Below, in pieces: positions 3,500 to 53,137 of a DNA stretch of 64,000 nucleotides. Within the stretch, counting starts at the first letter, position 1, and each line of letters begins with the position of its first letter. The notes under the pieces were generated by a model. That model searched no databases. It saw nothing but the letters and a program-made list of their open reading frames with translations, and had not been told where the DNA came from. The DNA is taken from contig NC_043008.1 of the NCBI RefSeq assembly GCF_006345805.1, positions 67,270,001 through 67,334,000 of the forward strand, in the 5' to 3' direction. This stretch comes from Octopus sinensis (taxonomy: Eukaryota). Made by a program: the position numbers and the translations under genes.

Positions 3500-4990
3500 C
3501 TAGACATACACCAGCTTCTCACCATCATCATTGAAAATAAATATTTCACTTTCTATCACCACACATACAAACAAACAACAGGCCTGCCCATGGGGTCCAG
3601 TCTCTCAGGCCTTCTAGCCATCACCTATATGAACCAACTGGAACATTGAGTGCTAAACACCTGCTGCTCCTGTGTTTCCTTCACCCAATACATAGACGAT
3701 ATACTCATCCTCACATCATCCTGTGAGGGGCTGACTAAATATCTATGACATTTTCAAATGCAGATAACAACATATAATTTACCACAGAACACCCTTATAG
3801 AAATGGTTCCTTGTCTCTGCTGGACTTCCAACTTAGAATAACAGATGATGGTACTATATGCATCAACTTCTATAAGAAAGCTGCCAGCAGAGACTTGTTT
3901 GTGCATTATAGATCAGTTCTTCCCTTTGGTGCTAAAACCAGATACATAAGAAATGAACTTACATGTATCTGGAATAAATGTAGCAAGATAGAAGGCCAGA
4001 TCACTCACACTGCACACTTCATAGATGTACTGAAGATGAATGGATACCCAACATCCACAATGAATTGACTTAAGAATCAAAGGTGCCGCTGTCATAAGAC
4101 CTCCTCTGACATCTGTTTCATGAAATTACATCTTAGCAAAAGCATAACCAAAGCTATCCGCAGAGCAATCCACAAAGGACTGGACATACAGTTAGCACAT
4201 TCCAACCCTTCTCTGCATGGATACCTGTCTAAAAAGCAATCCAGAGACAATAATCAATGTTCGCTGACTAACTGCCCTATCCGTGATACAGGTATGTACC
4301 GGCAGATACATGAGGTATACCAGACTGAATGCAACAAATGTAAGGAGCTGTACATTGGTACAATTCGAACACTCCACACTGGCATTAAAGAACGCCTCAA
4401 CACAAGCGCATCCTCATTCAAGAAGCACATTGACAAATGTAGAAACATCAACCAACATAAAGCCAGTGATAGAAATGTGAGCAACTTGAAAATCAAGGAA
4501 GCCTTGCTCATACATAGACTCAATCTGCAAATAAATAATAGATTAGAAATCAGCACACAATACTTGACATAAAAAGAAAGACCCACAGGCACACAAACTA
4601 AACACCTTGTGGCGGCACAAGCAATCAGCGCCATATTGGATGAGCCATTGCCATCTCCGGGACTGGAGCGAGACCTCACCTGCATCCATTTGCCATGCAC
4701 AAGATCACAACGAGGCTTGCAATGGAAAACTATATAAAGAGAAAACCCGATTCAGACCTCTCTCTTTTGGTGCCACTTCACAGCAGCGCTGGTTAAACAC
4801 CACCACTGGCTGTATCTTTCTGCATGTGTACCTCCAGAGGCAATTTGCACCCGCACTGTTGGAGCTACTGCACAAAGCACACAGCTAAAGATGGTAGCTG
4901 AGAGCAGCACACTTCACCAATCCTGTGAAACTTGTAAATAAAACCAGTTGTAAATAGCATTTGTACTTAAAGTCTTCTCTCTTCACCTGC
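3500..4990 (+). mobile_element. Decayed Penelope-like retroelement (RT plus GIY-YIG endonuclease)
   Basis: GLPMGSSLSG and YIDDILI RT motifs; LLDFQL..FYKK thumb region; VYQTECNKCKELYIG..RTLH GIY-YIG-like segment; stops and frameshifts. Confidence 0.88.
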
Positions 4991-9835: not shown

Positions 9836-9967
9836 CTGTTTAATTTGCTGTTCTTTCTGAGATATGGAATCTCTCCAATCATCCAAGGTCCGATGCAGTT
9901 CCTTCCTGAAAGACATAGCCCTTTCTCGTTCTTCATATTTTTTTTTCCGTAAGCGTTTCAGCCTCGC
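9836..9967 (-). CDS. PDCD7: PDCD7 exon 4 (ARLKRLRKKK...LDDWRDSISQKEQQIKQ)
   Basis: tttgcag| acceptor, CAG|GTAAGG donor, 132 nt; LDDWR resembles the IDRWR segment of human PDCD7 as I recall it. Confidence 0.9.
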
Positions 9968-10084
9968 CTGCAAATCATTCAGAGAAAACTCATTTCAAGC
10001 AGAAAGGAACATCATTAAAAATGAAAGCAGAGCAGAGTGCTTCTACACTATAGATAGATATGGTCACAATACAAAACAGAAGTG

Positions 10085-10300
10085 TAAATTATAACTATAA
10101 AATAGAATACAGGTAGATATAGCCACAGTATAAGTAGATCTGGCCATGACACAGGTAGGTATAATCATAAGACAAAATATGGTTACATTATACAGTAGAG
10201 GTAGGTAGGGTCATAATACTGAATATAAATAGTTATGGCCATAATGCAAAATACAGGTAGATTTGGCCACACTACAGTATATAGGTAGATAATATAGCTA
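10085..10300. repeat. Degenerate tandem repeat of about 20-30 bp (atacaggtagatatagccac-like)
   Basis: About seven imperfect copies. Confidence 0.55.
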
Positions 10301-11167
10301 TATATAAGCAATAGTACAATACACGACGGCCATCAAACATATATCTAAAATATGGGCTACAATTGAACTGGGAACTATTCTATTTAAAAAGAAAAATCTT
10401 GTATTGCATGAGAAAAGTTGATATATAGGAATTCTAGTAATATTTGAAAACAATTCTGTAAAGTCAGCCATACTGTGATGAACTTTGTACAAGACTTACT
10501 GTTTCAATTTACACACCATGTGTTGTATGACTTTGATTTTCTTGAGTTTCTACTAACAGAAACTCCATCAGATAGCATCATTTGATATCCAGTTTTACAC
10601 CATGTATTTTCTATCATTCCTGACTTGGTGAGGTTTTCTCCGTTGACAGTTTAATTATCATTATTATTATTACCTGGACTCAAATTACATTTGTACATCC
10701 ATCACAAATAGATGCAGCTTCTTTTATGCTTTTATTTTTAAAGTCGTTTTTCCTTTTTCTCTCATTTTTTTCTCTTTCTCACCTTTTTGGTTCTTTAAGT
10801 CCTCTCCTTCAAACACTTATACATTGAAATCAATGGAGCGAACATCATTATTTTGGTCATCTTCAAACTTCTGCCAAGAAGTGCTATATCGTTTCATTGT
10901 TTATAAACTCTTTATCCATGAATAAAAATTAACAATTTCAGAATAGATCATCAATGGTGTAACATAGGTTGTGAAAGGTGTATGGACTCCACTAGATGGT
11001 CACCTCATAGACATGCATTTGATATAGTCAAAAGTATGTTATAATTAAGGAATGAAACAGCCGAAACCCATTTAGGCCACAGAAAATCCCTACATCCAGA
11101 TACCCTTAATGTTCTCATCCTAGACAAGTATGGTAATATAAAACCCATTTCTTGTTCTTCCTTGTTC

Positions 11168-11375
11168 ATTAACCTCTAAGCATTTAGATTACTCTGTGAA
11201 ATGTAATGTTTATTTGCATTGTTTTGAATTAATCATGCATTATATCACAGCTTTGTGATTGTGTATTTTTAGAATGATATAAGGTAGGCATGAGAGGCTG
11301 GATCCTACCTTTTTGAACATAAAACAGGTAGGATATTTGGGATGGATATGGCCTGTCTAAATCCTAAAGGGTTAA
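11168..11375. mobile_element. Second TTAA MITE family; copies at about 19600-19820 and 61889-62110
   Basis: TTAACC..TAAGCATT...CTAAAGGGTTAA ends and shared internal sequence in three copies. Confidence 0.7.
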
Positions 11376-13914
11376 AATTCAGTATTTACTGCAATGATTC
11401 CATCCCCCACCCTCATGGTTGTAGCTAGATCTAAACTCCTCAATGAAAAACACCAAGTGCTATGAAAAACCTTACAAATCTCACAGATAGAGCAGTTATT
11501 TTGTAACACAAATCTTCCCTCACTCCTCCTGGTGAAAATCTATGCTATGGAAAGCCCAGAGTAATGTTAAGATACTCTAGTATATAGTTCTTTTATGACA
11601 AACAAAATCATAATATCAGAAGCTGGATTACTGCTGAAACAACAGATTCAGTTATCAACAATGAAAGACAACTGGTTTTATTTGGGACTCTTTCAATCCA
11701 CCAGTCTCAGAGAACCTGCAAAATCAATGGATAAAGCCAGATCAGAAATAAAAAAATCTGTACCTTCTTCATCATAACATATCTATTTCTAACACAGCTT
11801 ACTTTGTCACTGATATGTTGAGCAATGGAAATATACTCTGGAGTTATTACCAATTGTCTTCTTTGGGTGAACATGGAACCAAAGATTTTCAGAGCAAGTA
11901 TAAATGGAAGTTGTGATGTTCTTGTCTTTCCTAAAGGCATTAGTAACAGAAAGGAAGCAAAATGTAAAAGCCTTTTAAGATTCCAGAGGCTTTTAATGGC
12001 CAGTGTCTAGAGCTAGTTTTGTGAAAGTAAGCAGACAACAGATAAATTACCCACATGGATAGGGTAACAGTTTATTGTTTATTATTACAGTTAGCATGCT
12101 GAGAAAATTTGGGCATCTTCTACTATAGCTCCAGGCTGACTAAAGCCTTGTGAGTGAATTTGGAAGTTAGAAACTGAAAGAAGCTTGTCACATATGTAAA
12201 TGTGCATGTTGTGTTTGTATATGTACATGTGAGTGTTTGTGTGTATTCTTGTCTTGACAATCACATGATGGTTGTAATAGAGTATCACCATCATCAAGTG
12301 GTGTTGTTCATTTCCAGTCTGGCCACGGGAAAATCATTTTGCTTTGGAAAAGGGATGGGTTGGTGACAGGAAAGGCATCCAACCATAGAATATCTGCCTC
12401 AGTGAATATATCTGACCCATACAAGCATGGAAAAGTAAATGTTAAATGATGATGATAAAGAGGTAATCAAGCACATATTCCTGAGAGCTAAATGAATCAA
12501 AATGTGAAGGATTAAGTGAAATTGTCTTGATATTCATGTAATAAGTTGTAACTGCAATGGATTTAAACATAACACCTAAAAAACAACTGAAAGACAAGTT
12601 GATTTCCAATCCTCTGTGAAAACATGTTTCGTCATAGAGAAATATTACCTAGTTTGGAAGCAGGTGGGGGTTGACAACAGGAAAGGCAACTCTATCCAAC
12701 CCCATGTAAGCATGGAAAAAAAAATGGATGTTAAAATGATGATGACATGAGCCCCTTATCTCAGAGAGACTGTGAAGGTTATAGACACAGTCTATTTGTG
12801 TGTCCCCCCCCCAAAAAAAAAAATTGAAAAAAAAAAAAAAGAAGAAATAGCAGCTTAACATAAATTTCACTTCCACAATGCAAGTGAAGTGATTCCAATT
12901 GAGAACAGAAACCAGAACTTCAATTTCAGTAAGTGGAAAATATTCAACAATAAAATAGCAATGGGGAGGAAAAGTGGAACTGAAAGCCACACCCTCTGGT
13001 TAATGTTTAAATCAATAAATTTTCTCTATGCTCTCTCTTTTGAATACCTTAACCAGTTTCAGGCAGAACTTAATGTGCTTTCTCCAGGTAAAGATGAATC
13101 TGGAAAATTTTAGGAAGATGTGGACAGAGTAGGGAGTAAATGAGTGTCTAGATTTTTTCAAAGCTTTCCAATAAACAATTGGCAGAATGGGTCTAAAATG
13201 TTGCCTGGTTTAAAATCTGCAGCAGGTTTTGGAGTTCTTTTAGCAGAGTTCATTCTCTTGCATTCATTCACAACAGAATGCATGCAAAAGCACACACACA
13301 GAGTTTAAAAGGATAACAAGAAAGTAGACCAATGGTATTTCAATTATTTCATTACAATCATTTTGATTGTTAATAATCAATAATTAGTACATATTATATT
13401 GATAACCATTCACCTCATCAGATGAACATTGGGTATTTCAACATGCTAGCTGATGAGGTGGTTAATTACTGGTAGCACGGTACCACTGTATTGCGCAGAC
13501 TCTCAGATGTTGTTATACACCACTGGTCACAATGTGCTTCCTCACATTGCTATAGCTTTTGAATGATGCCATCCCACTGGCTAAGGCAGACAGATCAACA
13601 TTCCCTCTCAATGGAATACCAATTCGTCGCAGGGTTACTCATTTACTGCTGAGCATAGAGAAATGAAGTGTTTTGCTCAAGAACACAATGCACCTTTGAT
13701 CTGGGAATTGAAACCACAATCCTGTGATCATGAATGCAACACCTTAACCACTGAGCTACATGTCCTCATTATCAATATAATATGTACTGATTAGTCATTA
13801 TCAGCTGTTGAAACAACTGTAATGAAATAAAATTGAAATACCAACAGTTTGCTTTTTGGCCATTGACAATGGCTTAGCTGGCCGAAATTCCAAAGATACT
13901 GTCAAGAACATTCT

Positions 13915-14012
13915 TGTATAAGAATAATAAATTTGTACTCCACAAAAATATAAATTAACCCATCAGATTAATGCAAAATTGTTTTCATTATAAGTGAACA
14001 TAAAAACAAACA

Positions 14013-14055
<43 letters not shown>

Positions 14056-14468
14056 GAAGGTTTGGAAGTGATGAACAGGTATTATATATTATAAAAAATA
14101 AGGTACACAGAAATTTGGATGGTTTTATATTCACAGATTTTTATTAATATGTCACATGTTTTTATAAATCAGATATTAGCGCTTGCATCTACTCTAGTAG
14201 AAGCTCCAGATTCTACTAGAGCAGATGTTCAGTTATAATGAAAACAATTTTACATTAATCTGATGGGTTACTTTATACTTTTGTGGAGTACAAATTTATT
14301 ATTCCTATACATATTCTACTCTAGTAGAATCTCCAAATCTGAAGATTCTACTAGAGTAGATGCAAGGGCTAATATATGATTTATAAAAACACGTGACATA
14401 TTAATAAAAATCTGTAAATGTACAACCATCCAGATTTCTGAGTACCTTATTTTTTCTAATATATATAT
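13915..14468. repeat. Interleaved inverted repeats A-B-A'-B'
   Basis: A 13915-14001 pairs with 14225-14311; B about 14081-14205 pairs with about 14340-14468. Confidence 0.85.
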
Positions 14469-15859
14469 ACACACATATATATATATATATATGGCTATTG
14501 CCAGTGTCATTTAAATGGCACCCATGAAATCATAATTGTGGCCGTTGTCAGTAGCATGATCCTTAAATGTTGGGACTCATGGAGGTGAGGGATGAGGTTG
14601 TGAAGCATAATCTTCAAATGTCAGGCCTCACAGAGGCAATATAACCTTTGGCGATATGCTGGGTTTGAGAATACTTGTCAAGCCAAATGAAACCACAGTC
14701 ATGGCCATTACTAGTGTCATGTAAATAACACCCATGAAATTGTAGTCATGGCCGTTGCTGGCAGTCAAGTAAATGGCACCCATGCCAGTGGCATGTAAAA
14801 AACACCCATTACACTTTTGGAGTAGTTGGCATTACGGTTAGGAGTTAAAAACCATGCCAAATCAGACTGGAACCTGCTGCAGCTCTCCAGCTTGCCAGTT
14901 CCAGTTAAACTGTCTAACCCATGCCAGCATGGAAAGTGGACATTAAATGATGATGATGTAGGAGAATGCAATGTAAGCATAGTATAGAGAATAAGGGTTA
15001 GTGCTCAGATTATTAAGAATTTTTTACTCCAACCTCTTCATCCAGGGCCGGCACCTCAGGCATTGAAAATTAGTTTTAAGAATGATCCTTGCCAAGCCGT
15101 TATGTAGATAGAAAGGCAGATAAACATGGCTAGGCTTAATCCGTATATCTATGTGAAATACAAGATACAAATTATGGAATAAAAAATACTCTTCTCCCAA
15201 GGAGGATCACCAAGCCTAGCTTAAACAAATTCATTGAAACTTATGTTGTTACACACACCTATGACATCATGCACAGCTGTTATGTATGAATTTGATTATG
15301 GCATAAGTCACTGATCTCCCAAATCAGCTTTCGAGATAAGACTGTTATGTAACACCTTTTGTTTTCTTTATTCTGTAATCTGCATTTTGTATTCCATGCG
15401 TATATACACATGTTAAGCATACCTGTGTTTATCTTCCTTTCTATCTGTGTGTGTGTGTGTGTGTGTGTGTTTGTGTGTGAGCTAAAGAAAGAAAGAAAAC
15501 AGAAATATAAAACAGTGAAATACAAATAAATTACAGCTGAAACAAACAACATAAAAAAACCATATCATTATATGTTTCCACCTTGTTATTCATTGGTTGG
15601 TTTGATTGTACATCCAACCAATGAAAACCACTAACTGAAAGTTGAATCTTCATCGTAGCTTTAAAGGAAAAAAGAAATATTTTATTAATGAATTCAATTA
15701 ATTTATTAGCTAAGAAGGAAATGTGATGCCCATAGGTGACTTATGCTTCAAAGAAGTTGAAAATATTCAGGCAAAGAAAAAAAAGTGTTACCATTAAACT
15801 TGGAATTATTATTGGTGGAATTTGAAGTTGTTTGGAATCAAATAGAATATTTGCTGTAG

Positions 15860-16910
15860 TGTCAAAATATATAGCTATTGTGACAAGATGATACCAACAA
15901 TTGTTATAAGTGTTATAGCATTATATCAACACATGTTATATCTACATGATGAATACCAACATGTGTTATAAATGGGTGTTATAACAGTTCAATAATGACA
16001 CATGCTATGACTATGTAATATTGATGTGCTATAACAAGACAGTACCGACACATGCACAACATGGTATCAAATATGCCATAACACAGTGATATTGACATGT
16101 TATAACAGTGATATTAACATGTGCCATAACAATATTGACACATAACAGTAAAATCAACATATACTATAAGCAGTGTAATATTGGTCATTGCACAACAATG
16201 TGATATCAACATTTACTACAACATAATTTTGGCTACTACACAACAATGTGATATCAATATGAACTATAACATGATATTGGCTAATGCACAATTACATAAT
16301 ATCGATATGAGCTATGACATGACATTAGCTCAATGCCATAACAGTGCAACATTGACATATGCTATAAGCTATAACAAACATCATAACAATGTGATATCAA
16401 CACATGCAGTGACTGTAATATCATCAGATGTAATAGCAATTTATACTGACATGTGCTGTATCAACAAGCTCTGTAAACAATATTGATTTCAAATTTTGGC
16501 ACAAGGTCAGCAATTTTAGGAGAAGGAGTTAAGTCAATTACATTGACCCTCTGAGTTCAACTGGTAGTTATTTTATTGATCCCAAAAGGATGAATCGAAA
16601 AGTCAACCTTGGTGGAATTTGAACTCAGAACATAATGATGAATGAAATGCTGTGAAGCATTTTACCTGGCATGCAAATGATTCAGCCAGCTTGCCACCTT
16701 AGTTCTGTAAACAATATTAACAAGAAGAAATAACAGGATATCAACTATAATAACAAGCTATCAAAAAGAAACATACTGCTAATGCTATATAACATGACAT
16801 CAAGGTACACCCCATCAATATGATAATATAATGTTGCTATCACACATCTTTAAGTGTACGATAACAATAACCTATCAATACATGTTATAAACATGATATC
16901 CACTTATATT
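15860..16910. repeat. Degenerate 24/48-bp minisatellite interrupted by a SINE
   Basis: Recurrent ataacagtgatattgacatgtg-like units; cacaa(c/t) register at 16191, 16239, 16287. Confidence 0.7.
16485..16703 (-). mobile_element. SINE with 15-bp target-site duplication
   Basis: TCTGTAAACAATATT at 16470-16484 and 16704-16718. Confidence 0.85.
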
Positions 16911-16973
16911 GCAGAAATACAAAAAGGCACTGATAGGGATGGTCACTAAAAACACATAATTGCTTGAACTTAC

Positions 16974-17181
16974 AATGAAAAGAAAAGAAAAAATGTCACT
17001 CCCTGACACACAAATATTGTGCATTAATGTAAAGGATATTCAAAGTAAAAGGATATATGAGTTTCGAAGCCCATTCTTTGATCAACTTTGATATATTAGC
17101 CAGAGCTTTAATATAATTTTTGTTTTAAACAAAGGATATATATGTTTTGTTTTATCTGATTTTTTTTAAAGAGGCACAAGG
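16974..17181 (-). other. Candidate poison cassette exon in PDCD7 intron 3
   Basis: Acceptor ctccacttgcctgtttcag| before 17181, donor ATT|GTAAGT after 16974, 208 nt, in-frame TAA at codon 10; contains all three U11-site motifs. Confidence 0.5.
17031..17139 (-). promoter_or_regulatory. Candidate USSE (U11 snRNP-binding splicing enhancer): tandem ATATCCTTT motifs plus a third copy
   Basis: Plus strand aaaggatat at 17031-17039, 17048-17056 and 17131-17139, i.e. ATATCCTTT on the PDCD7 sense strand. Confidence 0.75.
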
Positions 17182-19139
17182 CTGAAACAGGCAAGTGGAG
17201 TAACTGCCTAGATTGGTCAGTCAAAATGGAATATAGACTTCCTAAAGGTACACCATGTATATTTCCAATAGGTCACACCAGGGAAGCTTGAGCCATACAT
17301 ACTGCAACCAAATAGGAATTCAGTTAAAGTTTCAGATATGACAGACAATATAGATTCTTTTTAAATAAATAATATATACGTATGTATTTATATAACCTTG
17401 CAAACCAATCCCCTATCCAGCCGTTTTTCTACTCACCTTGTGTCTTGAGGGACCACATAGACACCTCATTGCCATGATCTATCTCTTTGCAGCTCCTACT
17501 GATCATTTCATTCTTCTTTTTCTCTCCCTCTCCAACTAAATGTGTGTAACCATGCAGATCCTCTTCAAGAACCTGCTCTGAACCACCCAACTTCTTTCAT
17601 ACTTCTCATATCCTAGCATGAAGATGACTCCACTCTCTCAGGGTTTGTAGTCATGTGAGCTGCATGGCAACCTTACTGGTGCTGGTGGCATGATTAGAAG
17701 CACCCAGTACATGCTGTAAAGTGGCTTGCATTAGGAAGCGCATCCAGCCATAGAAACCATGTCAAAGCAGACACAGGAGCATGATGCAGTTCTTGGACAC
17801 AATGGATCCTGTGAAATCACCCAACCCATGCCAACATAGAATATGGATGTTAAATGATGATGAGGAGGAGGATATGTGTGTGTGTAAAAAATGGTTAACA
17901 GATTTATTTTTTTACATTGTTGTTTATAATTTTAATTCTATTTAATTATTAAAATAATGCCTTAACTCTTTCTGGAAATGGTTTTCCCTCACTTTTCAAC
18001 AATAAAATATATTATATTAAAATATTGAAATCTTTTGAAGAAGGCTCATACCCAATTTCTTTGCAGAAAATGGAGGAACCAATTAAATCAATGCAAATAT
18101 ATTTTGGATATGTAATTTTTATAGACATTGAAGAATATGGAACTCTTTTAGCAAAGTGTCCAATAGAGTATTTGGTCATTTTTTACAAAAGCTAAAACAT
18201 CAAAACAGAACTGGTAAATTAAATATTTCACATAAAACACACTCTTACACATCAACATGACATCGTTTTCAAACACCAAATATGAAAAGATGGCTCTTTT
18301 CACCTTCCAACACCTTAACTGATGTTGGAATGTTCTTTTGGGTGGAGGGATCTTTGTCTCTCTAGCTTGCTCGATATATATTCAAATGCCACACCAAGCA
18401 CCTATTTCTCTATCACTTCTGCTTTATTACATTAAATAGTTCAAGTATTGCTATGTAGTTAAGAGGCTTGCCTCCTAACCATGTTTCAGATTCAATCCCA
18501 CTATGTGGCACCTTGGACAAATGTCTTCTACTACAGCCCCAGGCTGGCCAAAGACTTATGGGTGGATTTGGTAGCAAAAGCTATAAGAAGCCAGTCATAA
18601 TATATGTGTGAGTATGTGTGTGTTAGTGTCTCCTTGTTTTAACAATGTGTAATAATTGTAGATGAATGTCACTATCAGACAAATGTTGTCATTTGTTTTG
18701 TGACATGTTCAGAAAAATTACCATTCTTGGAAACAGGTGGGGGTTGACAATGGTCATAGAAAATTGCCTCAACAAATTCCTTCAGATCCATGCAAACATG
18801 AGAAAGTGAACATTATAAAAAATGATGATGATGATAGACTGATATTAGATACTCCTAAACAGCCATTTTTATTTTTGTAATACTCCATTCATGTTTCCTT
18901 TAATCCTTTTATTACCATATTTCCATTCAAATACTCTGCCTTTGTTTAAATTAATTTTGAAACTAATAAAGAATTTAGTAAAATAACTGTCATTATTACA
19001 CTGGTGTTTCAAACTGATTAAAATAAAATTCTGATGGAAAGTTTTAATTTAGACCACTTTAAAACAGGAAGCTTGTATCATGGAACCAGGAGTGATATCA
19101 GGCAAGTTAGCATCAAAAGGATTAATAACTTATTTCTTT

Positions 19140-19540
19140 TCATTGGCACTTGAGCCTCGTGCTAGTAGGGTGCTAAGAGCACATCCAAGCGTGATTGTTG
19201 CCAGAGCGGCTAACTGGCTTCTGTGCCGGTGGCACATAAAAGGCACCATTCGAGTGTGATCGTTACCAGCATTGCCTTACTGTCACCTGTGTTGGTGGTA
19301 TGTGTAAAAAGATTCAAGCGAGGTCGTTGCCAGTACTGCCTGACTGGCCCCCATGCCAGTGGCACGTAAAAGCACCCACTACACTCTTGGAGTGGTTGGC
19401 ATTAGGAAGGGCATCCAGCTGTAGAAACTCTGCCAGATCAAGATTGGAGTCTGGTGCAGCCATCTAGTTTGCCAGTCCTCAGTCAAATCGTGCTAGCATG
19501 GAAAGTGGACTTTAAATGATGATGATGATGATGATGATTT
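19140..19540 (+). repeat. Abundant (TGA)n-tailed repeat (SINE or LINE 3' end); copies at about 3230-3405, 6395-6800, 8650-8825, 14490-14960, 17660-17870, 20200-20500, 21300-21990, 43130-43480, 51010-51300
   Basis: Shared ggcattaggaagggcatccagctgtagaaac...ccaacccatgccagcatgg...ttaaatgatgatgatg in both orientations. Confidence 0.85.
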
Positions 19541-22500
19541 TACTCATGGTATTCCAACCTTTCATTTTCCTTTTTTCATCCATTCATCATCATTATCCTT
19601 TAACCCTTTAGAATTCAGATTATTCTGTCGAGTATAATGTTTATTTATTCACGTTGTTTTGACTTAATCTCACATTTATCTTTGAGATATCGATGATGTG
19701 GTTGTCTATTTTTAAAATGATACTGCAAGGTAGGTGTGAGAGGCCAGATCTGGCCAGTTTGAACATAAAACAAGTACAATATTTTGGCTGGGTATGATTG
19801 GTTTAAACACTAAAGGGTCAAGGTCTATTTTTCCATGCTGGTATGGGTTGGATGGTTTAACAGGAGCTGGCCTGCTGAAGAGCTGCCTCGGTTCCATGTC
19901 TGCTTTGGCATGGTTTTTACATCTGGATGCCCTTCCTAATGCCATTAAGGGTCTAACTATCCAAGTTGAATTCTCATTAATAGGATCATACGTTTTGTGC
20001 CTATGATTTTTGTTTCATTCAGTTCTGATCTCAAGTCATTATCAAACAGCCCCAGATTGGTTCATATATGTATATGATATGTATATACAAGAAAAAGAGT
20101 TTCAATGATAATCAGAAATCAATCTAATTCAAATGTAATTATCTAAAGAAGAGGGCAACAGTTTAGAAAATTTTACCATATTTTCCTTGCAAATTACTTG
20201 GTGACCCTGCCAGTGTTGGTGCCATGTAAAAAGCATCCAGTCCACACTGTAAAGTGGTTGGTGTTTGGAAGGGCATCCAGCTGTAAATTCTATGCCAAAA
20301 CTGACTTTACCTGTGCTGGTACCACATAAAAAGCACTCAGTCCACTAAGTGGGGTAGTTGGTGTTAGGAAGGGCATCCAGCTGTAAAAGCATGCCTAAAC
20401 AGACACTGAAGCCTGGTGCAGTCTTTTGCTTAGCCAGCTCCTGTTAAATCATCCAACCCATGCCAGCATGGAAAGCAGTTGCTAAATGATGATGATGATG
20501 ACAAGTCAACATTGTATATAGTGTAAGCATAAACATTCAAACATTGTCACCGTCTTTCCAAATCCTGACGCATTTCACATGGAATTTTTGGTCCTCTGGA
20601 GTCATCTTGGTGTTTTAGTTGACTACCTTTGGGGCTGAAAAATTCAACTTGTATGCTGGAAAATATGGCAACTTATTAATCCAGCCACTGTCTTTCTTAA
20701 TTTTTGTTATTTAGTCAGTTATTTTTTTTATCATCTATTTATTTCATCAATCTGTATATATTCTACCTGTATTTCTACTGTTTCTTTTAAGCAGCTATCA
20801 TTATGTTATTTCCACTAGTTTCACCCTCAGATAGAAATTATGTCTGCAACACCATCAAGATAATATCTTGGTTACCTAGGTCCACAAGTTGATCAGCTTC
20901 TACAAAACCCAACTTACATTCAAGAAACAGCCTCTTCATAAAAGCCACTTATTAAAACACCAACTATGTTCAGTGGTACTTTAACTTCAGCAAATTCTTA
21001 GGTTTTCCTGTGTTAATTACAATTACAAATGAACCACAAGGTTGGAAGGTGAAAGTTTTTCTCCAACAAACATCATCGTCACAAGATCAAACTTGTGATT
21101 TATGCCGTTTAGAGTAGGTTTTTACTTAATACTCCATAAACAAGACTCAAAAATATATTTGTTTCAAGTCTACCAGGTTTTCAAAACAAGTATCACTTTA
21201 GTATTTATGATACAATAATTAGTAGCTGTACTTGCATAGCTACTAACTGTAGCTATGCAAATAAAAAATATGCATAGTGTACCACTGCATTACTTAATTA
21301 ATCATCATCATTTAATGTCTGCTTTCCATGCTGGCATGGGTTGGATGGTTTGACCGAGGACTGGCAAGCCAAAAGGTTGCACCAGGTTCCAGTCTGATCT
21401 ACCAAAGATTCTATAGCTGGATGCCCTGCCTAATGCCAACCACACCAATAGTATAGTGGGTGCTTATTACATGCCACCAGCATGAGGGCTAGTCAGGCAA
21501 CACTGGTAACAACCAGACATGAATGGTGTTTTTCACATGCCACCAGCACAGGACCAGTCAAGTGGCACTGGTATTGATCACATTCGTATGGTGCATTTTA
21601 TGTGCCTCCAGAACAGGAGCCAGTCTGGTGGGACTGGCATTGACCACACTAATATGGTGCTTTTTACATGTCAGCTGGCACAGGTACCAGTTTGGCGGTA
21701 CTGGCATCGGCCACGACAATGATTTCACTTGACTCAACAGGTCTTCTCAAGCACAGTATATTGCCCAACGATTGAAGAGTACTTTTAAATGGGGCGGTTA
21801 TGCGACACTCGCATAGACCACAGTTAGGGTCTCACTTGGCTTGCCAGGTCTTCTCAAGCACAGCATATCTCCAATGGTCTCAGTTGATTGTTATTGCCTC
21901 AAAGGTCATGCTTCACCACCTCATCCCAGGTCTTCCTGGGTCTACCTCTTCCACAGGTTCCCACAACCGTCAGGGTGTGACATTTTTTTCATACAGCTAT
22001 CCTCATCCATTCACAATACAATAACCTTCTCTGTATCATTCCAATCTTGTTGAAGATGATGTATGATCGTTCATCTTTTGCCAAAAGACCTGCACAAATT
22101 ATTTGTTTTAGAGAGATCAAATGTATGTGCTATATATTAGCTCATCCCCTCCATTAAATCTATGTTGCCTGAACAGGTGCATGGTGTACCACATACCAGG
22201 TGTTGAAGTGATCATAGAGCAACTTGAGATGAAGTGTTTTGCTCAAGAACACAATGCACCATCTGGTCTAAGAATAAAAACCATGATCACATGATCATGA
22301 GTGCAAACCCTAGGCCATCACACTGGCACGAGGACACAAATGTGTAGAGGAGGAGTATATACTGTTGATAGAATGACCCCTATTTTACTGGTACTTGCTT
22401 AGACGAACCTTTTGGCAGGGTGGGAACAAAAATCAGTCACCAACCCTACAAGTTTTGGACACTTGATGTAAGGAGGATTAAATTTGAATATGGTAGGAAA

Positions 22501-22959
22501 TTATCCCAGTATGCTTACATTTTGCCACTCCAACACCCTAACAATAGTGATAATGATGGGGGGGGGTTCTTGTAGCAGAAAGTCAGAAGAATTGTTGTAA
22601 ACTAATCACAGTACATGTCTTATTTTCCATCACCCAAGTGGAATGAAGAATAAATGTGACTCGAGTGAAATTGGAACTCTGAACATAATGAACCATGACT
22701 AAATACTATAAACCATTTAGCCCAGTATCTTAAAGTCAATAACATCCCTACCCTTAACTACCATCATAGACATAAGGCCACATAGTTTTGAGAGATGGTA
22801 TAAATGATAAAACTCCCCCTTCCATTTCCTCAACTGATTACTCAAGGTAAATTTAAAATACTACCACCCACCAAGCAAGCAAAAGAGCTAAACTAAGATC
22901 ATAAAGAGACATAACTCAATGCTACAATGCTGTGTACAACTTCCTTCCAATTTTGAAAT

Positions 22960-23374
22960 TCAGAGCACCATTTATAATAATGGTTTCTAAACTTAGCACA
23001 CGGCCAGAAATTTTTGAAAGGAAGAGTTAGTTGATTAAAGTGATCCCACCAATACTTGAGTGGTATTTTTATTTCATCATCCAAATGGATGAAAGGCAAA
23101 GATGACCAGGGTGGTATTTGAACTCAGATCATAAAAAGCCAGAAGAAATACTGCCTAGCATTTTGTCTAATACCCTAATGCTTCTGCCAATCCATTGCCA
23201 CCTTATTTAATAAAAACGATGAGGATGATGATGATGGTGACATTGGTAGTGGTGGTTGGGGAGGGTAATTTTAATTTTATTCCAAATATTTGGGAAGTCA
23301 AAGCTGAGAACTTGCCACATAATGAGATACCAATAAGAAACATAATCGGTGTCCTATTGATCATGATATCTACT

Positions 23375-23406
<32 letters not shown>

Positions 23407-23960
23407 CCTTTCTACTGTAGGCACAAGGCCTAAAATTTGGGGGGAGGGGATAAGTCGATCACATTGACCCCAGTGTTTCACTAGTACTTATTTAATTGAC
23501 CCCCAAAAGGATGAATGACAAAGTCAAACTTGACAGAATTTGAACTCAGAATGTAGCAGCAGATGAAATACTGCCACCTCACCGCCTTAATAATAATAAT
23601 AGTAGTAGTAGTAGTAGTAATGGTTTCAAATTTTGCTACAAGGTGAGCAATTTCAGGAGAGGGGCAAGTCAATTACATTGACCCCTATGCTCAAATGGTA
23701 CTTATTTTATTGCCCTTGAAAGGATGAGCGATAAAGTCAATCCCAGTAGCAGTTGAACTCAGAATGAACTGCCACAAGTAGTTTCGTCCGGCATGCTAAT
23801 GACTCTGCCAGCTCACCACTTTAGTAGTAGTAGTAGTTTATAGCTTTAGCAAGGTGACAAATTTGGGAGGCAGGAAGGTCAGTGAAATTATCCCCAATAC
23901 GTGACTGGTAATCTATTTTATTGACTCTGGAATGACAAAAGGTCAAGTCAGCCACAGCTA
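22960..23960 (-). mobile_element. Cluster of four copies of the same SINE family, minus strand
   Basis: Reverse-complement units (gaatttgaactcaga, gtacttattt) separated by (AAT)n/(AGT)n. Confidence 0.8.
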
Positions 23961-25259
23961 ATAACGATGAAGATGGTAATATAAACAGTAATCATTATGA
24001 TGATTTTTGTGGAATCTGTTTGCAACATAACTTCTGGTTTGGCTCACTGCTCCCTCACCTCTCTTCCTCCTATTGTATGTATGTATGTACGCACACACAC
24101 ACACTTATATATTTTTTGACACAGTTATTAACCTACCACTCTTAAAAATAAAATTCCATCAAAATGGAAAGAACAATTATGAATCTTTGTTTTTCAAATT
24201 TCTCTTAAGAAAACTTATAAATAAATATTCATTTTTCTCCGTTAAATTTTAATAAGTTACTTTCCTCACAATAAGAAATGCTATGTATCTATCTATTTGC
24301 TTATCTTCCTATCACTGTTTTTACCTCAATCTCTCACTCAATACACAAGTAACCTAGATGACTCACAGGCAATGTCCACTTCAGTTTCCTGCATTCAATC
24401 ATTTCAGAATGTTGTTGAATGATTATTTGCTTACAACCATTTTAAAATTCATTTTATTATTAAACAGTTTGTCATGAATGAAGAATGAGTAGTTTCACAA
24501 AGTGTAAGCAAGTGATACAACAAGAGGATTCCATCACTTTTTATCTTGAGCTCTCACTGAATACACTCTCTGTCTCTCTCTAACTCTCTTGCCATATGTA
24601 TGTCTGATTCTGTGTGCATGTTTATTTTCTCTTAAAAGAAGTAATTCATTGCAGAATGGAACAAAAAAATTATGAATCTCTTAACTTATGAATAAATATT
24701 TGTTTTTCTCTTACTGAATTTTAATAACTATATTGTCAGGAATTCATCAGAGGTAAAAATTCTTGCTGGTCAGTGTAAATTTACTCTACCAAGGGGATCC
24801 CACCAGCATCCTAATTATGAAAATATAAAATTTTCTAAAATTATAGTATATATACAGACACTGGCTGTCAAAATTTTCTATCTGCGGTTTGTTGTATAGA
24901 ATGCTGCATGTAGAAAAATAGTTAAAAACTAATATGTATTTTGATCTATCAAATGTTTCTTTTATTTCAATACTGTTTTATGTTCCTTTGTTTAATCCTT
25001 TGTGGAATATATATATACCTGTATTTCCTTGAAAGAAAGAATTACTTATTCCAGGTATAACATAAGGGGTCATGCACTAGTAGTAATAATATCTCAAGAA
25101 ATGTTTTAGGCAACTCTGAATTTTAACATTGTTGCTAATGAAACTGGAAATATCCCCCATAAGAAACAGGGCATTAACAGATGAAATGTCAGAGTGATGT
25201 CTGCCTTGGCAGACATCTTGGTCACATAGATCAGTTAGTAAAACAATCAATAAACTTAC

Positions 25260-25349
25260 CCTTTTCTTTAGTCTTGCTTTCACCTTCTTTTCCAGTTCTT
25301 CAATCAGATTTTTATCAGTGATTTTCCGACGTAAATCTTCCAATGTCTC
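25260..25349 (-). CDS. PDCD7: PDCD7 exon 3 (ETLEDLRRK...KARLKKR)
   Basis: ttttttgtag| acceptor, AGG|GTAAGT donor, 90 nt, phase 0/0. Confidence 0.88.
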
Positions 25350-29469: not shown

Positions 29470-30729
29470 CGTTATGGTTGAAGGTTTCTTTGCAGGCCGG
29501 TCCTGGATTTTCGTGGAAAACTTTTGCTTAATCCATTCTTTGTCTTGTTGTCTTTGGAGTTGTAAGGCATCATCGATTTGGGAATATTCAGAATCTACAG
29601 AACTGTCAGGTTTTTGTGGGATCCTGTTCCCATAAACTGGCGTCAGAGGAGGTGGAACACTGAAGTTTGATGTCGCTAAAGTCACATCAGACAGTCCACT
29701 GTTTGATGGAGTGTTAAAATTATTATCCCCGTGTAATTGATTCGTATTTAAGGTGTCGGCCAGAGGAGGGGGCGGGGGAGAAATAAAACTGGGACCGAGA
29801 GGGGGAGGAGGGGGAACAGAAGTGGCATTGGATGGGATGCTAGAAACAATGGAATTAGAACTGTCGGTTCCTAGATACATCGGTGCAGAACAAGGTTTCA
29901 AGTACTGTGGAGGCAGTGGTGATGGACCAGCAGAGGATGGGGCAGATGAAGTATGGGGTATCACCGGTGGTAGTGGTAGGGGTGGCAGAGGCGGCAGGGA
30001 AGGTGGGGGACACGATGTGTCGAGGCCGGGGAAAGGGGGCAGGTTGAAGTTGGCCGGATACTCTGGTGTTGCAACGTTCTTCTGTTGGGGAATGTAATTC
30101 ACTCCCGAGTAGAATCCAGCTTGGTCCCTGATGGGTGGTGGCAGCGGTGGTTGAGGACGAGTCGGTGGTGGCTGTGACGGTAACCTTGTCGTCACTTGTT
30201 GATGCATGTGTAATGGCGGTGGGCGTGGCGGCGGTGGTGGTGGTGGTAAGTTAGTGTTAGGAAACTGTTCTGGTCTGAAACCGCTTCTGCTGTATTTCGG
30301 CGGGTAGTTGTTGTCATTAGTGATTGGTGGAAGAGAGTTCGAATGTAACATGTTCCTCGTGTTATTGTTGTTGTTGTTAGTATTACTAGACCTTGGATGA
30401 TCAGAATAATTATACGGTGGCAAAGCTCCTTCAGTTCGGCCGTAAGGTGGGGGGTAGTTTTTGGAGTCATGATCTTTATAATAATTTCCCTCATCAGGAT
30501 GGTTATATCTGGTACCCCGGTGCTGTTGTTCGCTAGGGGGAAAGTTGCGGAACGTACGTTGGCTCTCGCCGTAGGGTCTGGAAGAGAAGTTGTCATTATT
30601 TGTGTCATATGGTTGATGTTGTTGTGATGGAGGTAGTGGTGATGGAGGTAGTGGTCTACTCTGTTGGCCACGTTGGTGATGCTGATGATAATATGTATCA
30701 TCACTGTAAGCCGATGATGACGGATTCAT
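29470..30729 (-). CDS. PDCD7: PDCD7 / U11-59K coding exon 1 (420 codons; Pro-rich, Q/N/Y-rich low-complexity N-terminus)
   Basis: ORF 29416..30747; ATG at 30729 (MNPSS...); donor ACG|GTATGT, phase 0; splices in frame to eight downstream exons whose product resembles PDCD7. A small upstream coding exon is possible (see findings). Confidence 0.85.
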
Positions 30730-51525: not shown

Positions 51526-53119
51526 ATCATCATTATCATCATCATTGTTCGACCGTGGTCGAGACAATGGAATTTACCATGTTGCGCCAGACTTCACGGT
51601 CCATCATAGCATTACGGAGGTCCTGTTGCTGGATGCCTGTATCCCTGGAGATTACATCAGGGTAGGAGAGTGTGCGCCCTCTGGTGTTGCGAGTAGATGG
51701 CTTCCAGAGGAGAAGAGTAGAAATTAATTCTTTTTCAGCTCTACAACAATGTCCAGCAAACTGGACTCTCCTACCCTTCACAAGAGATGACACAGGTGGT
51801 AATTTCCCATATATTTGCATTTTAGTTGGATGGCGCCTCCACGAGAGATTTTGAGCTCTCATAAGGAGGCGAGTGTAGGTTCCATCCAACCGCCTCTCAA
51901 GCTTCTTTGATAACGTCCAGGTTTCTGAGCCATATAGTAGGATTGGTTCGACTGTGGCTTTGAATATTTCAAGTTTGAAGTCTCTACTTAGATTTGATGA
52001 CCAGATCTTATGCATGTCATTACAGGCTGACCAGGCCATACCCTTTCTAGTTAGAAAGTCTTTTCCAGATGATGATATGTATGACCCAAGATATTTATAA
52101 TCAGAAACCATATTTAAAGGTGCACTGTTGAGAGTGTGGATGATGCAATCACTGTTGGACAGGCACTTGTTTATGTATTCAGTTTTGGTCTCATTAAGGT
52201 AAAGACCTACACAATTTGAGGCTTGTTCAAGAGATTGTAAAAGAGACTGGGCATTGGAGAGAGAATCACTGATAAGAGCGATGTCGTCAGCAAAATCAGT
52301 GTCTGTCAAGTACTCAGCTGGGTGTCTGGAACTTCTTCTTGGTTTTATTTCAAAGCCCTTGCCAGAGATGGTATCAACTGACATACGTAGCACATAATCA
52401 ACAACAATGATGAAAAGAAATGGGGCGAGTGTGTCTCCCTGCAGTATTCCGGCCTCGATCGAGAAAGATGATGTTTCTCCATCAGGGGTTAAGATGGTTG
52501 AAGACGTATCTGTGTAGAGGACCTTGATGGCAGAAATAATTTTGTCTGGTATCCCATAGAGCTTAAGGATTTCAAACATCTTGCACCTATCCACAGAATC
52601 GAACGCTTTAGAAAAGTCTACAAATACCATTGCAAGATCGCGATTAAATGCTTTTGATTCTTCAATAAGTCTGCGCAGGCATAGTATCTGGCTCAGCGTT
52701 GAGCGCCCATGTCTGAATCCATTTTGGTTCTTTCGGAGCTAAGGTTCAACAAAAAGGACAAGACGATTTAGGATCAGTTTGTTGTACAGTTTTGCAGCAA
52801 TTGACATTAGAGATATGCCCCTGTAGTTGGTGACGAGGGACAAATCGCCTTTTTTGGGTATTGGAATGATTTGAGACTGGTGCCAAATCTTTGGAGCGAC
52901 AAAGGTGGAAAGTGTGTGGTTGCAGAGGTTAAGCAAAAGTGTGTGAAATCTATCATCCTTCCAAATCACAGCCGGAATGTTGTCGGGACCAAATGCTTTC
53001 GAGGCTTTTAGTTGCTTGGTGGCTGCTGTTAGTTCAAATATGGTAAAAGGGGAGGTGTTGATGTCCAGCGTGTCTGATATAGGCACACTTGGGAGAGTGG
53101 GGTTATCAGGGATTTTGGC
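51526..53119 (-). mobile_element. Young 5'-truncated RTE-like LINE (RT domain, one premature stop, (TGA)n tail)
   Basis: ORFs 52739..53125 and 51542..52630 are in frame, separated by one TAG; motifs PKKGD..NYRGISL, FVDFSKAFDSV, GILQGDTLAPFLF, FADD, YKYLGS. Confidence 0.95.
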
Positions 53120-53137
53120 ATACACTCACACATATAC

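Follow-up and report, generated by a model that had tools for sequence, protein, structure and literature searches.

Three U11-type motifs in intron 3 of octopus PDCD7 as a likely relocated USSE

Intron 3 of the octopus PDCD7 gene holds three copies of a U12-type 5' splice-site-like motif, two of them in tandem, and the question that they raise is whether a gene for a U11 protein other than the known hosts carries a USSE. On balance, we think that these motifs probably act as a USSE-like decoy that drives the use of an unproductive acceptor upstream. The argument bears on the identity of the host, the rarity of the motifs at such a position, the splice signals around them, the assembled contigs that cover them, and the state of the other minor-spliceosome genes of the same genome.

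The window, i.e., the whole stretch of 64,000 nucleotides analysed here (Octopus sinensis, contig NC_043008.1, positions 67,270,001 to 67,334,000), contains on its minus strand a nine-exon gene running from 30729 to 373 (octopus genome G000, contig C12). The translation of this model is identical to the annotated Octopus sinensis PDCD7 (P0156). The Pfam family PDCD7 is matched above cut-off by exon 5 (E 6.6e-10) and exon 9 (E 8.6e-11), and the O. vulgaris orthologue matches the human PDCD7 of the U11 snRNP structure with an E-value of 1.2e-43. This protein is U11-59K; the accessible portion of bioRxiv 10.1101/2023.12.22.573053 describes it as a scaffold of coiled-coil type, through which SNRNP48 is brought to U11 and which also contacts RNPC3. 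PDCD7 therefore encodes a protein of the U11/U12 di-snRNP, as a USSE host should, and differs from the two published hosts. The gene is laid out as follows:

29470..30729, minus strand: PDCD7 exon 1 of the nine-exon model, proline-rich N-terminus, 420 codons
26847..26990, minus strand: PDCD7 exon 2 of the nine-exon model
25260..25349, minus strand: PDCD7 exon 3, with phase-0 donor AGG|GTAAGT
9968..25259, minus strand: PDCD7 intron 3, in which the element lies; 15,292 nt, U2-type (GT-AG)
9836..9967, minus strand: PDCD7 exon 4 of the nine-exon model
8623-8485, 7566-7454, 5731-5611, 1417-1330 and 494-373, minus strand: PDCD7 exons 5-9, which carry the PDCD7 Pfam domain

The stretch of intron 3 with the element is single-copy in the genome. 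Other features of the neighbourhood were noted in passing: intron 7 contains several overlapping open frames of 96-167 codons (window 3779-4751) that are likely a decayed retroelement; a pair of neighbouring open frames (398 and 128 codons) on the minus strand (window 51542-53125) is possibly a mobile element; and an RRM gene with a 294-codon open frame lies on the minus strand about 52 kb beyond the window end (G000:C12:67385879-67386058).

Three ATATCCTTT motifs are found inside 109 nt of intron 3, and they are the only sense-strand matches to RTATCCTT in the PDCD7 gene span:

17131..17139, minus strand: M1, U12-type 5' splice-site-like motif ATATCCTTT
17048..17056, minus strand: M2, ATATCCTTT followed by T, first motif of the tandem
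17031..17039, minus strand: M3, ATATCCTTT, second motif of the tandem, 17 nt start-to-start from M2

All three are of the AT type, in a genome that is AT-rich. The 5' end of U11 reads AAAAGGG in two of the five U11 loci of this genome, the two best ones (L001 and L002), and in the usual register of pairing between U11 and such motifs it is complementary, as read by eye, to their TCCTTT(T). The genuine U12 intron of octopus RNPC3 has the donor GTATCCTTTT and the branch point TCCTTAAC, which confirms the U12 consensus locally. By its sequence, the locus looks like a USSE in each respect examined: tandem, complementarity to the organism's own U11, and a U11 protein as host. Another U11 locus, L003 (G000:C1794), is divergent, and small contigs such as C8591 and C8594 carry divergent RRM and SNRNP25-like genes; all of these may come from a second organism in the assembly.

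The main alternative is that the motif cluster arose by chance in an AT-rich intron, that its acceptor and donor are cryptic, and that the RNA covering it is unspliced pre-mRNA or DNA. Single RTATCCTT motifs are indeed common (8 in the window vs 5.6 expected). The strict tandem occurs 111 times in 2.72 Gb, both strands counted, so that a uniform model expects 0.0006 in PDCD7 and 0.005 in eight genes of that size, which argues against chance; the loose tandem occurs 886 times genome-wide, again on both strands, with 0.005 expected in PDCD7 and 0.04 in eight such genes under the same model. A reversed control pattern is as common genome-wide as the real tandem (146 vs 111), and the case therefore rests on where the tandem lies, inside the gene for a U11 protein, and not on any excess across the genome. 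A pattern with all three motifs has seven matches in the genome, six of which are tandem or simple repeats by eye, leaving the PDCD7 locus as the sole exception, a rarity that is overstated because the pattern was shaped on this locus after the fact. Chance is favoured by the existence of 110 other strict tandems, none of the 40 that were screened with a home-built RRM profile having a significant RRM match nearby, by the lack of a stable fold in the element stretch (z 0.83), and by the lack of an Rfam family match for it. The element stretch shows no informative local repeat apart from the context of M1 and M2. A separate GT-type tandem, L066 (G000:C6:103366710-103366735), closely resembles the human RNPC3 USSE in its spacer; no RRM gene was found within 90 kb of it.

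The sequence-only reading had enclosed the motifs in a 208-nt poison exon, and the signals that it named are all in place:

16974..17181, minus strand: candidate poison exon, 208 nt, with stops in all three frames and the phase-0 stop at 17154-17152
17182..17220, minus strand: acceptor region of the candidate exon, with branch-like CTGAC, a tract of 76% pyrimidine, and CAG just before exon base 17181
17242..17271, minus strand: alternative acceptor that would open the exon at 17241 and bring a stop after 6 codons
17302..17331, minus strand: alternative acceptor that would open the exon at 17301 and bring a stop after 19 codons
16968..16976, minus strand: candidate U2-type donor ATT|GTAAGT

The branch-like CTGAC lies at 17220-17216 and the acceptor ttactccacttgcctgtttcAG gives 17181 as first exon base, with two AGs (G at 17208 and 17204) in between, which is a weakness of the site; the distance from this acceptor to M1 at 17139 is 42 nt, as had been claimed, and the donor below the tandem cuts at 16974|16973. 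Against the decoy, the M2/M3 tandem is rather far from the acceptors (125 nt for 17181, 245 nt for 17301), and only the single motif M1 is close. Joined in phase 0 to the end of exon 3 (25260), the candidate exon reads PCASLKKIR-stop, just as it had been translated, which puts a stop after nine codons; the two alternative acceptors, also correctly named, bring early ones too. The exons that would run to the donor from 17181, 17241 and 17301 measure 208, 268 and 328 nt, all 3n+1. The phase-0 stop is 178 nt before the donor and has six exons downstream of it (9967 to 373), as the sequence-only reading had counted. Stops more than 50 nt upstream of a junction generally mark an RNA for NMD, and NMD of the cassette product is predicted. 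The encoded product would have 498 of the 735 residues and would be devoid of the Pfam-matching part, in agreement with the loss of the conserved C-terminus that had been proposed.

How unusual is this arrangement? With a filter that demands YAG after a tract that is 70% or more pyrimidine and free of inner AGs, 17181 is the sole acceptor to pass between 16500 and 17800, and 27 of the 832 AGs in the 15,292-nt intron do so. GTAAGT occurs three times inside intron 3, once 57-58 nt below M3. We used 40 of the other strict tandems as controls for the flanks, with thresholds set after seeing the PDCD7 locus: 15 had an acceptor within 150 nt upstream, two had GTRAGT within 100 nt downstream, and none had both; nor did any of the 40 have a third motif within 150 nt. 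Elsewhere in intron 3, a pair of acceptor and donor is found in 0 of 2,820 overlapping slots. Both the missing third motifs and the missing pairs of splice signals among the controls speak against chance, and the 208-nt exon from 17181 to 16974 is the best candidate by sequence alone.

Transcript evidence comes from assembled contigs of four runs aligned to positions 16720-17620, with exons 3 and 4 outside the aligned stretch: X1 (organism A), X2 (B) and X13 (C), which are guessed to be RNA, and X20 (F), which is genome-sized. These are four of the 24 listed runs; none of the 20 carriers is recorded as RNA, and 14 are guessed to be so. The contigs of X1 cover 17302-17009, 16978-16777 and 16795-16720, those of X13 cover 17288-17076 and 17112-16988, and X2 has a single unbroken contig from 17430 to 17003; gaps in coverage (in X1, 16979-17008 and everything above 17302; in X2, everything below 17003) were given no weight. 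Within 16720-17620, none of the four runs has a splice joint, and none of X1, X2 and X13 has a loose end matching 25260-17181 or 16974-9967, in contigs that as such drop rare forms. This absence of a junction, and the unbroken X2 contig, fit the chance explanation. Positions 17181 and 17241 are bridged by single contigs in all three probable-RNA sets, and 17301 is bridged by X2. Hence, the dominant RNA, if it is RNA, is not a transcript that enters at 17181. Since an NMD target is rare and contigs drop rare forms, the missing joint does not refute the cassette. One edge of an X1 contig, at 17302, coincides with a G shared by the last base of exon 3 and the 17301 acceptor; it has no loose end, comes from one study and falls below the bar for a hint, such a G being present at 19 of the 451 positions within 17000-17450. 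The acceptor at 17301 is nevertheless the only one with any hint from transcripts, and 17181 the best one by sequence.

The same contigs tell how the locus varies among close relatives. The donor GT is kept in organism F (X20) and reads TT in organism C (X13, one contig of depth 4.8, near the contig end), so that it is conserved in one of the two, and its absence in C is a point for chance. Placed by eye, the 28 loose letters of X13 span the donor with four changes and an insertion of 2 nt; two of the X13 differences fall where X20 differs too. Motifs M1-M3 are unchanged in both organisms. Divergence is about 2% for F and roughly 4-5% of aligned sites for C. By our estimate, all 27 motif bases would stay unchanged at the latter level in one case out of three to four or so, and the conservation of the motifs is thus not significant. 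The comparison involves close relatives only, and one contig of organism C shows 9 changes and 13 gap letters over 226 nt; an unlisted change in X13, a plus-strand C>T, cannot fall in the motifs and could in principle touch the acceptor. In X2, four extra bases in an A-run move the first stop to codon 26, and a stop is kept.

No octopus protein ending in the poison peptide was found among 39 candidates and 152 shorter ones, and the single match in the search of the shorter ones turned out to be a read-through of exon 2, not the poison peptide. A metagenome scan for a distant version of the intron returned one locus, 2,076 nt long, in which that intron is missing. Four of the 15 listed members of a cuttlefish-type PDCD7 cluster (P0162, P0163, P0169 and P0172, on 19 contigs) end in RG-stop two residues past exon 3. 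Read-through into the intron was rejected as their origin. Exon 4 of the octopus yields the same RG-stop when its frame is shifted by one base, so the cuttlefish-type junction of exons 3 and 4 seems to be one base short, perhaps by splice shift, allele or assembly. Proteins P0165 and P0174 differ upstream of exon 4 and share the same C-terminus; one of the two may contain an alternative exon.

A further point against chance is that PDCD7 encodes a subunit of U11 and that the genes of its partners are here without the element. SNRNP48 is a single locus on C1 (L042, G000:C1:165891957-165893252) with a 451-codon open frame that aligns unbroken to residues 50-326 of human 48K (E 8.5e-32). Its coding region is intronless and therefore offers no coding intron for an element of the vertebrate type. 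No RTATCCTT tandem is present in 40 kb at this locus; two relaxed pairs of the ATATCTTT type lie 4.9 and 9.8 kb upstream, so that a degenerate USSE may exist in an intron of the SNRNP48 5' UTR, which counts against the preferred reading. RNPC3, located via RBM41, is on C8 (L184, G000:C8:5423135-5421033; E 4e-14 to the human RRM) and still has a U12-type intron with GT-AG ends just ahead of the final coding exon. The 120 kb around it, of which 36 kb lie beyond that exon, contain four isolated RTATCCTT motifs, one of which is the real U12 donor, and no tandem. Tandems are also absent at SNRNP25 (50 kb; identified by Pfam PF18036 only), SNRNP35 (30 kb) and RBM41 (30 kb), and two single motifs lie 170 nt apart upstream of SNRNP35. 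Thus, of the six minor-spliceosome genes examined (PDCD7, SNRNP48, RNPC3, SNRNP25, SNRNP35 and RBM41), PDCD7 alone has the tandem. As a separate observation, the open frames that encode the RRMs of SNRNP35 and RBM41 extend over 291 and 310 codons, which hints at wide intron loss among such genes. Taken with the rarity of the tandem and the flanking signals, the distribution among U11 genes makes chance an unlikely explanation.

A second alternative keeps U11 binding and dispenses with the cassette: U11 on the cluster would slow or block the removal of intron 3, or hold the RNA in the nucleus, giving a retained or intron-ended transcript. The contigs that bridge the acceptors fit it, as do the X1 contig from 16978 to 16777, which extends beyond the donor, and the reading of X13 through the donor; an AATAAA is available at 16577, inside a repeat-like stretch. 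Nuclear retention in human RNPC3 needs the USSE, according to the available text of PMC5473595, but the same text makes retention dependent on the 3' splice site upstream, and this alternative consequently overlaps the explanation that we prefer. The contigs, moreover, show neither transcript ends nor levels, and we regard retention without any cassette as quite improbable.

That M1-M3 are real U12-type donors, either closing an exon that starts at an upstream acceptor, as in SRSF10, or joining M1 or M2 to the AC after M3 in a small AT-AC intron, is very improbable: their 5' consensus is a perfect AT-type one, and M3 overlaps TCCTTTAC with an AC 10 nt later, which resembles the consensus of a U12 branch point and AC end, but TCCTTRAC is absent from intron 3, its three relaxed matches do not adjoin exon 4, the branch point of the genuine U12 intron in RNPC3 is TCCTTAAC, and the motifs are covered without a skip by contigs of X1 and X2, and in two overlapping pieces by X13, in assemblies that drop rare forms.

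We return to the decoy as the preferred explanation. The sequence-only reading had called the locus a USSE with the 208-nt exon as its effector arm. The first part is strengthened by the host, the rarity of the motifs, the match to the organism's own U11, a spacing like the human one, and the lack of a tandem at the five other minor-spliceosome genes; as to the second, it is doubtful that the exact 208-nt cassette is the main product. By analogy with vertebrate USSEs, as the consulted sections of PMC5473595 and PMC8329584 present them, the U11 or U11/U12 snRNP would bind M1-M3 without splicing there and, by exon definition, would help U2AF to hold the ordinary acceptor upstream. The predicted product has an early stop and would give no working protein. 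A rise in U11 snRNP would then increase unproductive PDCD7 RNA and cut the supply of new scaffold, a negative feedback of the kind known from vertebrates. Two outcomes can be envisaged: 1) a cassette that ends at 16974 and is sent to NMD, as in 48K; or 2) an exon that runs on, with an RNA retained or ended in the intron, as in 65K. Sequence favours the first; the contigs, together with the absence of the donor GT from organism C, point rather towards the second.

In the literature, USSEs are placed in SNRNP48 and RNPC3 only (PMC8329584, 2021; PMC6865273, 2019, in the portions available), and they occur in plants and animals while being absent in Diptera (PMC3584512, likewise in part). The accessible text of these and other papers (including PMC6558932, PMC12179342, PMC4615840, PMC8034651 and PMC11874965) places none in PDCD7 or in a cephalopod; the species surveys in the primary papers (Verbeeren 2010, Niemela 2015, Turunen 2013) may mention PDCD7. 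With an element in PDCD7, an intronless SNRNP48, an RNPC3 free of tandems, and papers naming those two hosts alone, the octopus element is likely a relocated USSE. A more specific scenario, which we advance tentatively and would put a little short of an even call, is that the octopus has rewired the feedback: SNRNP48 would have lost its coding introns and RNPC3 its USSE, and the three-site decoy of PDCD7 would have become the sole sensor, acting through the poison acceptor of intron 3.

Comparison with known systems brings out what is shared and what would be new. As in the minor-intron autoregulation of SRSF10 (PMC7244321, in the part available), the level of the minor spliceosome would set the amount of an unproductive isoform of a splicing factor; unlike SRSF10, where the minor intron is spliced, PDCD7 intron 3 has no matching U12 branch point. 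With the SNRNP48 (U11-48K) USSE (Verbeeren et al. 2010, as relayed in excerpts of PMC5473595, PMC8329584 and PMC3584512), the octopus locus shares an intronic tandem of U12-type 5' splice sites in a U11 protein gene, a U2-type acceptor upstream, and a predicted poison exon with NMD. It differs by its host, PDCD7, by three motifs instead of two, all of them AT-type, by a candidate exon that encloses the motifs, by the intronless coding region of octopus SNRNP48, and in being known from sequence alone. The RNPC3 (U11/U12-65K) USSE of human consists of two 9-mers 15 nt apart, as read from the blocking morpholino in the available supplement of PMC5473595. Unlike it, the octopus element sits in a mid-gene intron, so that the predicted product truncates the protein, and octopus RNPC3 itself is the gene without a tandem. 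Like it, again by the consulted part of that paper, the octopus element has a closely spaced tandem (17 nt vs 15 nt), its motifs lie inside a candidate alternative exon, and read-through and retention are possible outcomes. If the reading is true, PDCD7 would be a third USSE host, found where the two usual hosts show none, and what is conserved would be the feedback on the level of U11/U12, not an element inherited in place. This raises the question of whether PDCD7 gained its USSE after SNRNP48 lost its introns, and USSE control would be a portable module able to arise anew in another subunit.
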